NCBI GenBank assembly: GCA_951406725.2
Contig: OX597823.1
Location: forward strand, 63,426,001 to 63,490,000
DNA from: Octopus vulgaris
Taxonomy: Eukaryota
Length of the DNA stretch: 64,000 nucleotides
Direction: 5' to 3'
A program made the translations under genes and the position numbers. Positions 505 to 34,654 of this stretch are shown piece by piece. The stretch's first letter is position 1; each line of letters begins with the position of its first letter. The notes below the pieces were generated by a model. That model saw only the letters and a list, made by a program, of their open reading frames with translations. It was not told the DNA's origin and did not search any database.

Positions 505-2837
505 ACGCGCATTGGCCTGGGCCGCCGACCATCCCCGTGGACGCCTGCCCCTGGCCAGATCCTAGCAGTGGATCTTTTCGCGGGCGCTTGTCAGCGTGCA
601 TTGGAGCGGTTCAACTTCTCCAGGCGCCAACGCCGCCTCAACATCTCCCCGGCTGAGCTCTTGGCTCTTCGTTCCCTCCAACGGCGCGCTGACATTATCA
701 TCAAACCGGCTGACAAGGGTGGAGCTGTAGTGGTGTGGCGCGCGGACCTCTATAGGGCCGAGGCTTTCCGCCAACTCAATGACACCTCCTTCTATTCCCC
801 TCTGCCCTCTAACCCCACACGTAGCTACCAACAGACGGTATCCTCTACTGTCCAAGACCTCATCTCGTCCTCCCGTCTCCCCGCACCGCATCCAACCTAA
901 TTGTGCGAACCCCACGTACCCCCACCATTTACTTCCTCCCCAAAATCCCCAAACCCAACAACCCTGGCCGCCCCATCGTCTCCGCCTGTAACTGCCCCAC
1001 GGAGCTCATCTCTAAATACCTCGACCGTGTCCTTGCCCCCCTAGTGGCATCTCTTCCCTCCCACATCCACGATACCAACCATGCTCTCCGGCTTTTCAAC
1101 TCTTTCTCCTTTCCTCCCGGCTCCTCCAAAATCCTTTTTACTATGGACATCCAAAGCCTCTATACTGTTATCCCTCACCACGAAGGACTGCAGGCCCTTC
1201 GACACTTTCTTGACCTCCGCTCTAACCCTGTACCTGACACCTCCACACTCATTCGTCTGGCCGAACTTGTCCTTACTCTGAACTGCTTCTCGTTCGCGGG
1301 CGAGTTCTACCATCAGGTCTCGGGAGTGGCCATGGGAACGCGAATGGGCCCCAACTATACGAGCCTGTTCGTTGGCTATGTTGAGGCCCAAATATTCTCT
1401 AATTTCACTGGTCCCACTCCTGAACTATATGGTCGTTACATTGACGACATTATCGGTGCCACCTCACTCTCCCGCGAACATCTAGATTCCTTCCTCTCTT
1501 TCGTCCAATCTTTCCATCCAGCCCTCCACTTCACTTCCACTATCTCCAACACCTCTGTCTCCTTCCTCGACATTTCGGTTAGCATTCTTTACTCCACTCT
1601 TACCACCTCCATTCACTACAAACACACAGACTCACACTCATACCTCAACTTCTCTTCCTCCCACCCAGAACACACCAAGCTTTCCATCCCCTATTCCCAA
1701 TTCCTCCGTCTACGTAGGCTCTGTAGTGACGACCATGACTTTGAGACTCAGTCTCAACGTATGACTCACCACTTCACCCTACGTGGATACCCCCTCACCA
1801 CTATCCACACCGCCCTTGCCAGAGCACGGTCCGTGGACCGTGTATCTGCTCTCTCTCCCCGAACCCACCCTGTAGTCTCCCGCCTCCCTTTTCCCCTCAC
1901 TTACCACCCCACGACCCTACGTCTCCAACGCACCATTCTTCGAGCTTTCCGTCATCTCCAGTCCGACCCGTCCACTTCACACCTCTTCCCTAACCGACCC
2001 CTCCCCTCTTTCAAACGAGCCCACAACCTTCGAGGCCTTTTGGTCCATAGCTCCTTCCCTGACCCTACCTCCCAACCCGGCTCGTTCCCCTGCTCCCGCC
2101 CACGTTGCCGCACTTGCCCTTACCTCTCCAACACCACCCGCCTCACTAGCACCCACCATCGACCCTATCCCATCATCCACTCCTTCACCTGCACCTCCAG
2201 CAATATTATCTATTGCATCTCTTGCTCTCTCTGCAATTCCTTGTACATCGGACAAACGGGACGCCGCTTGGCTGACCGGTTCGCGGAACACCTTCGTGAC
2301 ATCCACCTTGCGAACGACACACCGGTCTCACGCCATTTCCGCTCCACCGGTCACTCCTTGCAACACCTATCTGTGTTCGGTTTGTCCTTACACAGAGGCC
2401 ATCCGGATTCCCGTTTGCGCCGTGAACAGGAATTAATCTTCTCTCTTCGCTCTTATACGCCATTTGGTCTCAACTCTCCCCCCTCCTCATCTAACCCCCC
2501 TCTCCCCCTCCTCACCTATCCTTTCCCCCGACCCCTACTTCTTCAGTCCTTCATCCTTTCACCCCTACTCCCCTTCCCTTCTTCCCTCTTTCTCCCTCCC
2601 TCTTCCCCTTCCCTCTGCTCCCTCACTCCCTCTCTCCCCTTCTCTCTCCCCTCTCTCTCCCCTCTCCCTCTTTCCTCCTTCATCCCCCTCCCCCTCCTCT
2701 CCCCTCCTCTCCTCTTCCCCCTTTCCTCCCCCTCTTCTTCCCCTCCCCTTCTCTCCCCTTCTTCTCCCCTCCTCCCCTTTCTCCTCACTACACCACATGA
2801 CTTTACACATCACATCACATATGATGTGCCATACTAA
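505..2837 (+). pseudogene. PLE RT-GIY-YIG ORF with a single frameshift near 885 (joins ORFs 475..900 and 903..2837)
   Basis: First frame gives LLALRSL..DIIIKPADKGGAVVVW; second frame resumes TASNLIVRTPRTPTIYFLPKI after an apparent 1-nt loss. Confidence 0.88.
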
Positions 2838-25290: not shown

Positions 25291-25805
25291 GAAGAGCTAG
25301 ATAATTTACTCTAGAACAATTACTGGAAGAGACAACATGAGGAAAAGACACGGAAAGATGCAATGTATGTTGAACTCTGAATACCGTGTCTTTCTGGAAG
25401 GAGATGGCAACAAGTGAGGAAGATCATTGTTTGAGAAGAAATGTCCAATAGACGTAAATATGCGTAAACTTTAACTAAACTGATGATGATGATGAGGAGG
25501 AGGAGGAGGAGAGGAGGAGAACGACGACGACGAGGTGACATTGTTGTTATGGTTCGTATTATTGTAGCATAGTCTGTCATCTCTGATTAATCAGACATAG
25601 AATGACTGGGGCTCAAATGGCAATTTTTCTGCCTTTGTATAAAGCATTCGACTTACAATATCAACTGTATCCTTCGTTTTAATAACACAGCAAAGTGTGA
25701 TATGAAGAAGATTCAACTGCTATTTCTAATAGATGCCACATCTACCCTAGAGGGTTATTTACATTATTTACATTATTTATATTTGTACTCACCTTGTTTG
25801 TTGTT

Positions 25806-25851
25806 AATACAACGTTTCGGCTGATATACTCTCCAGCCTTCTTCAGGTGTC
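25806..25851 (-). ncRNA. Minimal type-I hammerhead ribozyme motif (left arm)
   Basis: GACAC-CTGAAGA-A-GGCTG(10 nt)CAGCC-GAAA-C-GTT-GTATT; one mismatch in helix I. Confidence 0.75.
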
Positions 25852-25935
25852 TTGGGGGAAATGTCGAACCTGGATTCTCATTCCTGAGGTATTTTTCGAT
25901 GTTATTATTATTATTATCATTTAGTTAGTTAGTTA

Positions 25936-26012
<77 letters not shown>

Positions 26013-26175
26013 CATTATTATTGTTCAGATCACTGCTTGGAATCGAACTCGGAATGTTGGGGTTAGTAGCCCCAAGATTCCGAGTTCGATTCCAAGCAGT
26101 AACCTGAACAACAACAATAATAATAATATCGAAAAATACCTTACTAATGAGAACCCAGGTTCGAAATTTCCCCAA

Positions 26176-26221
26176 GACACCTGATGAAGGTTGGAGGGTA
26201 TATCAGCCGAAACGTTGTGTT
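26176..26221 (+). ncRNA. Minimal type-I hammerhead ribozyme motif (right arm)
   Basis: GACAC-CTGATGA-A-GGTTG(10 nt)CAGCC-GAAA-C-GTT-GTGTT. Confidence 0.82.
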
Positions 26222-26539
26222 AACAACAAAGATGAGGTTAAATATCCGTCGAATGTAAATAATGTAAATAATATAAATAATGTACATAATTCCTCATCTC
26301 TTAAATATAGAACTGTACCCTAGAAGGTTCCTGATATCAGGTTATATGAAGCTATGAATAGCGTATATATGACGTGCAGCAACCATCAAGCTGTCGTCGC
26401 TAAGGTTAGGGTCAGGATTGGGATTAGGGTTAGAGTTAGGGTTGGGGTTAGCATGCGCTGAGGCTGCGACATTTTCAGTAATTCCTTGATAGTGAAGAGA
26501 TGTAGTCGCTTTATGTTAGAAGCTTTTTCTTTTTTTTCC

Positions 26540-32890: not shown

Positions 32891-33707
32891 AAAACAAGTC
32901 TTTAACGTTTCGAGCCTACGCTCTTCAACAGAAAGATACACAGAGAAAAAACACAGAAAGAAGGAGAGAAAAAAATATGCGTGCAGAAGCTAGCGAATCA
33001 ACATGGCGATCTGATTTCGGCCAGAAGTCAAAGATCAAACATGAGACGCAAGAGCGAAATTAGGGGAGATAATGGGGTTGAATGACCTCACTCCAACATA
33101 AGAGTGTGTGTGTGTGTGTATGAGAAGAGTGTGTGTATGAGAGAGTATTAGTGCGTATGAGAGGTCTGGACGTGTGTATGTATATATGATGTGATGTGTA
33201 AAGTCGTATGGTGTAGTGTAGAGAGAGGAGAAGAGGGTGAGGGCTGAGGGGGAGAAAGAAAGGGGAGAGGAGGGGAGAAGGAAAGGGGAGAAGAGGAGGG
33301 GGAAGGGGAAGGGGAGAAGGAAGGAGAGGAGAAGAGGAGGGGGAGAAGGAAGGAGAGGAGGGGAGAGGAGGGGAGAGGAGGAGGGAGGATAGAGGGAGAG
33401 GGGGAGATAGAGAGAAGGGGAGTGAGGGAGCAGAGGGAAGGGGAAGAGGGAAGAAGGAGGGAGGGAGAAAGAGGGAAGAAGGGAAGAGGAGTAGGGGTGA
33501 AAGGATGAAGGACTGAAGAGAAGTAGGGGTCGGGGGGAGGTTAGATAAGGAGGGGGGAGAGGGGGGTTAGATGAGGAGGGGGGAGAGTTGAGACCAAATG
33601 GCGTATAAGAGCGAAGAGAGAAGATTAATTCCTGTTCACGGCGCAAACGGGAATCCGGATGGCCTCTGTGTAAGGACAAACCGAACACAGACAGGTGTTG
33701 CAAGGAG
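32891..33707 (-). mobile_element. Second, 3'-only copy of the PLE at 505-3488, bounded by (TA)n on both sides
   Basis: SLQHLSVFGLSLHRGHPDSRLRREQELIFSLRSYTPFGLN identical to the first copy; pyrimidine tract and pLTR follow. Confidence 0.92.
32899..32936 (-). ncRNA. Hammerhead-like motif identical to 3352-3389
   Basis: Exact reverse complement over 38 nt. Confidence 0.65.
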
Positions 33708-34654
33708 ATATATATATATACAAAGATGAACTTATTGATGACAAGGGCTACGTGGTGTTCAATTATTAAATACATGAAAAAATACGCATAACGAGTGAAA
33801 AATACGTAAACACACAACGAGAGATAAGTACGGGACAAAATACCAAAAGAAGTCTAACCCTTCCTCAGTTGTCGACTGTGATATTACTCCCTGTTTCCTG
33901 CTTTTAACAAAACAGGAAAACTTCACAAGACAGCAACGTCCAGAAATTTTAGAAATACAAACTTTGTGGAGGGTTAGGGCTTCGAACGAACAAACGACAG
34001 CAGAGTGGACATACGGAAGAAAACAATGAACGAAGACGGACATTAAAGGCCGTTAGGCCAAGGCGAATTGTAATAGGTAACGCCTGGAAGAAATTTTGAA
34101 AGGATATAGAATAGATAGTGGAAGTGTAAGGAATAATTGGAGGTGAAAGAAATGATGTCCGGCTGGCTGGCCGTCGAGTCCAGAAAAGACAAGAAAACTG
34201 GCCTGTAGTCACGTGTGAGCAAGAAGAAGAGGGGAAGGCGACAAGAGAGAAGACGAGGGAAAGAAGCAGAGGAAATGAAGAGAAAGGAGAAGGAAAGAAA
34301 GAAAGACAGGGAACAACAGAAAAGGAGGGAAAGAAAAAGAAATATAGAGGATGATAGAGAGATAGAGAGAATGAAAAGAAAATAGGCAGGGGACAGTGTT
34401 GAGACGCACATATTATATATAAATTCAAAAACTTACTGTTGACAAAGGATGAGGGATCAAGGTAAATAACGAGAGTCAAACAACTCGAAACATCGATGTC
34501 TGAGATTCCTAACAGATGGCGACACTGAACGAATTGGGTGTTTTCACACCCTTTTACCATAAGAGAGATATTTTTCTCCACGGTAACTGCATGTATTTAC
34601 CCTTTAGCAGTTAAAATATGTGATAAATATATTTCAACTAACTTACATACTGCT

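Follow-up and report, generated by a model that had tools for sequence, protein, structure and literature searches.

In a 64,000-nucleotide stretch of the Octopus vulgaris genome (assembly GCA_951406725.2, contig OX597823.1, positions 63,426,001 to 63,490,000; here called the window, with position 1 as its first letter), a palindromic 559-bp insert (25757-26315) is bounded by a 14-bp target-site duplication (25743-25756 and 26316-26329) whose two copies are identical at 13 of 14 positions. The insert is almost certainly derived from the pseudo-long terminal repeat (pLTR) of a Penelope-like element (PLE), probably of the Penelope/Poseidon type, that carries a tRNA-derived head, and it consists of two head-to-head arms that are about 90% alike (208 matches and 24 mismatches, gaps excluded). 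The inverted left arm (25757-26069, minus strand) runs outward from an anticodon stem through a B-box (26039-26050), an (AAT)n tract (25902-26022) and a minimal type I hammerhead (25806-25851, core at 25840-25846; CTGAAGA variant with one stem I mismatch), all on the minus strand, to 9-bp repeats (25755-25783), and has no tail. The direct right arm (26070-26315, plus strand) contains the corresponding B-box (26082-26093), (AAT)n tract (about 26105-26128) and hammerhead (26176-26221, core at 26181-26187), with a predicted cut after the GUU at 26214-26216, followed by 9-bp in-frame repeats (26252-26290), the region in which tail-less arms end, and by a 25-nt extension, the PLE "tail" (26291-26315), that is found on this arm only. 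From the ATG at 26147 to the end of the element at 26315, the plus strand remains open and holds the first 56 codons of the PLE open reading frame (ORF). Both B-boxes are collinear with the T-arm of genomic tRNAs, and the arms meet in a self-complementary remnant of an anticodon arm, G4-N7-C4 (26059-26073, symmetry centre 26066), where the A-box half of the head, present in other copies, has been lost. An earlier note, made from the sequence alone, had described the palindrome, the duplication with its single mismatch, the B-boxes, the (AAT)n and 9-bp repeats and the centre of symmetry; all of these were found where it had placed them. It had not mentioned the one-sided 25-nt extension or the open frame of the right arm.

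The element belongs to a large family. In the genome (2.8 Gb, 227 contigs), a 38-nt hammerhead word and a 34-nt head word have 1,281 and 565 exact matches, respectively, compared to none for either of the reversed control words, so that the pattern seen in the window is not due to chance. Given that only 2 of 56 independently found arms contain the exact hammerhead word, the true number of arms, by our arithmetic, lies roughly between 10^4 and 10^5 genome-wide. A query with one arm gave 3,584 candidates, of which 40 were scored, and the mean divergence of arms from the column majority is 4.7%. The family appears to span several related organisms, since the stretch is present in sequencing runs with five organism labels; no relatives were found in viral contigs.

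Other copies supply the missing half of the head, namely the A-box at position 8 and about 28 further bases. The resulting 74-nt head is collinear with genuine tRNAs of the same genome and its A- and B-boxes keep tRNA spacing. Among the isotypes compared (Arg, Ala, Thr, Cys, Lys and one Glu call, from 30 fetched loci), tRNA-Arg was the best-scoring one, matching in 48 of 75 columns (z 5.3-7.3). A profile of the A- and B-box pair, which replaced a strict regular expression that had caught only 4 of 23 family copies, reached 22 in the family, compared to at most 12.6 in 36 relatives and at most 15.3 in shuffled sequences. None of the 36 relatives with downstream DNA had a pair above the shuffled background, and ARAGORN at low threshold gave only scattered calls on relatives, none of them between the stop codon and the hammerhead as in the family. 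Head and hammerhead body are linked in 23 of 30 head-anchored loci, whereas 3 of the 30 heads end within the (AAT)n tract. Both the tRNA origin of the head and its linkage to the hammerhead, as proposed in the earlier note, are thus borne out by other copies. Processing of the head by RNase P was considered as well and dropped because the acceptor strands of the head are not complementary. Two further features of the head were observed. At head positions 7-15, a short upstream frame of two codons (ATG and one more, then a stop) overlaps with the A-box, and the main ATG lies after the (AAT/AAC)n tract; the upstream frame is possibly relevant to translation. In addition, several loci (L002, L006, L023, L363, L375, L383 and others) fold back perfectly where the head starts, around a 2-nt centre that occurs in both orientations (flip/flop), which suggests palindromic intermediates.

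The hammerhead is of the minimal type of PLEs and is predicted to be self-cleaving. It has a CUGANGA and GAAA core, an extra base before stem II, a short stem I and a palindromic stem III of 2 bp, an architecture that matches the minimal hammerheads in the available part of a previous study (PMC4209133). Helix pairing was assessed in 17 motifs, those of both window arms and of 15 relatives selected solely through core words. Stem II was paired in 79 of 85 cells (shuffle mean 58.5) and stem I in 55 of 68 cells (shuffle mean 29.7) with several pair types, and none of 2,000 shuffles equalled either value. The earlier note had called this hammerhead well formed, which has to be qualified, since the type is minimal, neither single-strand folding nor a co-fold of the two arms returned the active fold, and Rfam does not report it either. 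No piled-up RNA ends were seen in RNA-seq data. For the PAc element of the anole, cleavage was reported, in the accessible text, to be protein-assisted and to be dispensable for insertion in vitro (PMC11167929).

Evidence for the identity of the element comes from its coding copies. Several loci with PLE sequence upstream of the head gave the first sight of the true source, and in long copies the tail runs in frame into a PLE ORF. With a query of coding sequence only (4,980 candidates, 150 scored, 30 loci fetched, one of them the locus of the query itself), the head was found to begin about 33 nt 3' of the PLE stop codon in 28 of 30 loci. With an ORF-start query, 7 of 30 loci extended backwards as far as the head, and another shared 5' end was not seen; this query held 47 nt of the tail, and the junction count is therefore biased. 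The order of the unit is head (A-box, B-box), (AAT)n, ATG, hammerhead, 9-bp repeats, tail, an ORF with reverse transcriptase (RT) and GIY-YIG regions, stop codon, about 33 nt, and again a head. Locus L393 contains pLTR, ORF and pLTR in one natural copy of 2.8 kb, in which B-box, hammerhead, tail, whole ORF, untranslated region (UTR), head, hammerhead and tail follow each other. Three further loci (L152, L158 and L166) are partial tandems, and two (L151 and L165) start at the head with foreign flanks and continue into the ORF. Seven loci (L144, L149, L150, L152, L156, L160 and L170) hold mini-elements, in which an internal deletion has left a pLTR, 260-460 nt of ORF start and a second pLTR.

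At the protein level, the translated right arm is identical at 12 of 17 positions (E 2e-5) to the N terminus of P0003, an intact 847-aa PLE protein from another organism. The 569-aa frame of copy L136 matches RVT_1 with an E value of 2.7e-6, just under the curated cut-off, and contains a DKG motif as well as a C-x-C...H...H pattern that was read from the sequence, whereas the Pfam GIY-YIG model gave no match to this frame. The family protein has PLE-type homologues, two of which, P0001 and P0002, are 68% and 60% identical, and among solved structures only weak matches to the RT core were obtained. Linker cysteines between RT and endonuclease are present in L061, whereas none was noticed by eye in L136; a regular expression for a Zn-finger-like linker matched no protein row. 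A tree, which contained no named reference, parts the family from three Neptune-like proteins with support values of 100/99.

The earlier note had proposed a short interspersed element (SINE) that uses a PLE as partner. A PLE sharing its sequence was indeed found; however, head and hammerhead both belong to the pLTR of that PLE, and the long copies enter the ORF with the A-box intact. Neither of the two outcomes that the note had named as refuting was thus obtained. Family copies are 83-90% alike. At the only clear subfamily site, both variants occur in ORF-linked as well as in free copies, so that no separate SINE lineage emerges. The whole unit, head included, is the partner's own pLTR. A poly(A) or simple-repeat 3' tail is absent, and copies have fixed ends either at the tail end or in the 9-bp repeats.

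A different partner had been considered initially, namely an abundant GIY-YIG family with intact 781-aa frames, and was ruled out because it has no nucleotide similarity to the head or body and possesses a different hammerhead core. The loci L061-L069 represent a Neptune-like PLE family that is young, abundant and rich in intact 781-aa frames; CCAAT-like repeats follow its ORF, and its hammerhead-like motif has the U3-A8 variant of the core.

The 90 loci analyzed for integration marks are the first on contig C1 with an exact hammerhead match (places 1-92, among which two pairs fall in a common locus). Short copies far outnumber coding ones, with an ORF fragment in 6 of the 90 loci; none of the 90 short arms enters the ORF, and the tail is present in 47 arms and missing in 43. 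An inverted upstream arm was detected in 39 loci, and in 34 of these 39 pairs exactly one arm carries the tail (P 1e-6). Duplications of at least 10 bp with at most one mismatch, some of them of low complexity, flank 33 of the 90 loci, compared to 2.8% of mismatched control pairs, and 25 of the 39 inverted loci. Mobilization by the Penelope machinery, as claimed in the earlier note, is supported by the one-sided tail and the duplications. The variant at the subfamily site is the same in both arms of 60 of 68 pairs (P 7e-8; one variant served to select part of this sample), an agreement that points to a single template or a single source. Only this site discriminated, since overall arm identity within loci (0.918 versus 0.912, P 0.053) did not. 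Most multi-arm loci, including the window copy, are head-to-head, and direct repeats such as L082 are a minority. In the window copy, the arms join at the anticodon stem through a patch of 3 nt that they share. This junction, which the earlier note had attributed to fold-back, is a feature of the window copy and not a rule of the family: a start at +25 to +35 was seen in only 4 of 35 head-bearing arms. As a separate observation, three other repeats have their ends joined to the (AAT)n tract of 5'-truncated pLTR copies, each of them at several loci (L088, L099 and L199; L096, L102, L177 and L226; L098, L184, L208 and L146), and these fusions are either insertions into the tails of the other repeats or template jumps.

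Besides the two boxes at tRNA spacing, two lines of evidence suggest transcription by RNA polymerase III (Pol III). The first is a sharp 5' boundary: 25 of 30 head-anchored copies end within about -8 to +7 of the head, compared to the about 3 that we estimate from truncation rates elsewhere in the unit. By score, 4 of these 30 loci continue into the PLE UTR (5 by eye); 18 lead into an inverted arm and the other 8 (7) pass into foreign DNA, so that 7-8 copies start at the head with unrelated flanks and no inversion. The second is the scarcity of T-runs. On the sense strand of 30 long copies (51,851 nt), 19 runs of four or more T and none of five or more were counted, where 110 were expected (ratio 0.17). 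Each T4+ site occurs in at most 3 of 12-30 copies and no TTTT is shared over the 2.3-kb ORF; near the ORF start there are two further minority sites, one of which gives T5 in 2 of 29 copies. In contrast, 80 related PLE loci (127,976 nt, from metagenome assemblies and in part redundant) contain 576 T4+ and 153 T5+ runs, or 1.44 times the expectation, none of the 47 long relatives is free of runs, 16 of 22 scored relatives have T-runs between stop codon and hammerhead, and three other PLE families of the same genome possess 4, 8 and 7-9 runs. A4 runs in the family are at expectation. The probability of zero runs, computed under five null models, was 0.0005-0.001 when fitted to relatives, 0.0045-0.008 under Poisson models, and 0.0017 and 0.014 under codon-aware models (L134). 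Such a lack of T-runs would be expected of a coding element that Pol III transcribes over its entire length. A first terminator 3' of the tail was looked for and not found. Judged from these features, Pol III use is likely for the short copies, and Pol III transcription of the coding element appears somewhat more probable than its absence.

The palindrome is almost certainly a short back-to-back pLTR insertion of an abundant PLE whose coding element is likely copied by Pol III. On balance, we favour an autonomous coding retrotransposon that would be transcribed by Pol III from end to end from a captured tRNA promoter, with an ORF purged of terminators and a terminal repeat that doubles as a SINE. 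Initiation by Pol III would lie a few bases upstream of the head; the enzyme would read the 2.8-kb unit with no T-run in its way and stop at the first T-run in the flanking DNA, and the 3' pLTR and short copies that keep both boxes would give rise to a short, SINE-like RNA. The PLE protein likely primes reverse transcription at two internal sites, the tail end and the tail start, as reported in vitro for the anole element. An inverted arm would be generated by a second pass or priming or by fold-back on the same template, with the arms joining at short complementary patches, in the window copy at the anticodon stem with loss of the A-box. The window copy is probably a dead end. Two difficulties for this scheme are how an RNA without a cap would be translated and what a hammerhead would do whose cut splits the coding frame.

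A number of observations weigh against this interpretation. As to the components, at the gathering threshold Rfam has no match in the window, and in five full copies, with E values up to 1, it gives 21 weak matches of which none is a tRNA or a hammerhead; ARAGORN detects no tRNA in the window, and the box profile separates the family weakly, with a family median of about 12.5. No intact family ORF was present among the 150 and 55 scored matches. Eight of the 68 arm pairs, among them that of the window copy, are discordant at the subfamily site, implying that two-template events or recurrent change occur. A hairpin of -8.7 kcal/mol at the border of UTR and head could set the 5' boundary without a start site. 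As to the T-runs, the 30 copies are one family and the result therefore amounts to one independent observation; 3 of the 47 long relatives have at most one run, G4 runs are low too (0.25, compared to 0.54 in relatives), two of the 251 four-mers are more depleted than TTTT, and copy L136 taken alone is not significant (P 0.27 and 0.63). When three raw RNA-seq runs of a related organism were mapped to copy L119, depth was equal in both directions without a pile-up of starts or ends, and 63-68% of the reads continued into unlike sequence; these reads come mostly from copies embedded in other transcripts. Finally, the promoter of Penelope in D. virilis is described, in the portion of the source available, as LINE-like and TATA-less and not as a Pol III promoter (PMC2377424).

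Three other explanations have to be considered. Pol III may produce only short pLTR RNAs, the coding RNA being made by Pol II from a promoter in the pLTR or by read-through in tandems and the lack of T-runs in the ORF being due to chance; the short copies would then be in practice a PLE-mobilized SINE, much as the earlier note had proposed. The excess of short copies over coding ones, the sharp boundary at the head and the three partial tandems fit such a division, a capped RNA would remove the translation problem, and the Sm-alpha element discussed below is a precedent for Pol III with a hammerhead. This alternative is nevertheless unlikely, since the absence of a shared T4 over 2.3 kb would have a probability of about 0.001-0.01, L151 and L165 start at the head between foreign flanks and enter the ORF, and both subfamily-site variants are common to free and ORF-linked copies.

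Quite unlikely is an ordinary Pol II PLE that carries a tRNA or SINE head as a passenger in its UTR, with ends piling up at the hairpin on the UTR/head border and short palindromic copies as plain 5'-truncated pLTR products. Such products have precedents, as far as the available parts of the sources go: pairs of minimal hammerheads on opposite strands, 100-700 bp apart, were described as probable truncated PLEs (PMC4209133), and inverted 5'-truncated arms and tails are standard in PLEs (PMC8557442); the RNA-seq data gave no RNA start site either. However, a passenger head does not account for the 7-8 of 30 copies that begin at the head with unrelated flanks and no inversion, for the tRNA spacing kept by the two boxes, or for the T-run depletion, given that most relatives have T-runs between stop codon and hammerhead. 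It is highly improbable that an independent SINE lineage of tRNA origin has taken the place of a separate partner PLE's pLTR time and again by template switching: the template jumps and internal deletions common among family copies and the three heads ending in the (AAT)n tract would fit, but the junction of UTR and head is fixed at one position in 28 of 30 ORF ends, and neither a head-less pLTR nor another shared body behind the head was seen.

The family that we propose to be Pol III-transcribed shares many features with known systems, described here from the available parts of the cited sources. Penelope/Poseidon PLEs, such as Penelope of D. virilis and PAc of the anole (PMC11167929, PMC8557442), likewise have an RT followed by a C-terminal GIY-YIG domain, a pLTR that overlaps the ORF start, an in-frame hammerhead, partial tandems, and an inverted 5'-truncated arm with a tail of 30-40 bp on one end only; unlike these, the octopus family has a pLTR that starts with a tRNA-derived A/B-box head and a sense strand without T-runs. 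In PAc, the ORF starts in the hammerhead, and reverse transcription from two internal sites in vitro defines the tail (PMC11167929). The statement of the earlier note that no well-described SINE class of such a kind is known was too wide, in view of the opposite-strand hammerhead pairs mentioned above and because Sm-alpha and Sj-alpha of schistosomes are tRNA-related, SINE-like, short high-copy repeats in which a Pol III promoter is followed by a type I hammerhead (PMC2770079, PMC6765202, PMC8490949). They are non-coding tandem units for which these texts name no coding partner, whereas the octopus unit is the pLTR of a coding PLE and is arranged head-to-head. Non-LTR retrozymes (PMC7229834; bioRxiv 10.64898/2026.07.22.740005) likewise derive from PLE pLTRs, are short, carry a hammerhead and are proposed to rely on the proteins of PLEs, but are defined as head-to-tail tandems in which each unit has a hammerhead; "tRNA" does not occur in the available text of the latter source. 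R2 elements are a precedent for a ribozyme-bearing retrotransposon, with translation thought to be IRES-like, and differ in being co-transcribed with rDNA and in carrying an HDV-like ribozyme at the 5' end, the octopus hammerhead lying inside the coding frame (PMC6765202).

Head-to-head truncated pLTRs, the combination of a Pol III promoter with a hammerhead, and retrozymes as PLE derivatives are consequently already known. Full-text searches of the open literature listed no paper that describes a coding PLE with a tRNA head or with transcription by Pol III. Classical tRNA-derived SINEs likewise possess an A/B-box head, here closest to tRNA-Arg, and a 3' part in common with an autonomous element; the octopus unit differs from them by the missing poly(A) or simple-repeat tail, the two internal 3' ends and a PLE partner that itself bears the head. 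The octopus SINEs OK, OR1 and OR2 were reportedly described by Ohshima and Okada in 1994, and the short form may already be catalogued under such a SINE name.

If correct, the proposed Pol III transcription would mean that a retroelement with a coding function no longer depends on Pol II and on capping, and would pose the question of how a Pol III RNA is translated in an animal. It would also represent the birth of a SINE in the reverse direction, in which an autonomous element captures a promoter and sheds short copies. Further cases could be screened for by the combination of a tRNA head and a T-run-free ORF, and Sm-alpha-like elements may be orphan pLTRs. With two 3' ends and scored junctions, the arms of this family, tens of thousands in number, document in nature how inverted PLE insertions arise, which has been called an undefined step (PMC8557442).

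Other features of the window include a different PLE at 825-2837 (plus strand), with a 670-aa open frame that comprises an RT core, a cysteine linker and GIY-YIG. It groups with Neptune-like rows on a long branch, and its sense strand is C-rich. A fragment with the C terminus of the same PLE family is located at 33035-33853 (minus strand). Lastly, eight degenerate copies of a 6-nt telomere-like unit are present at 26404-26451, 75 bp behind the insertion.
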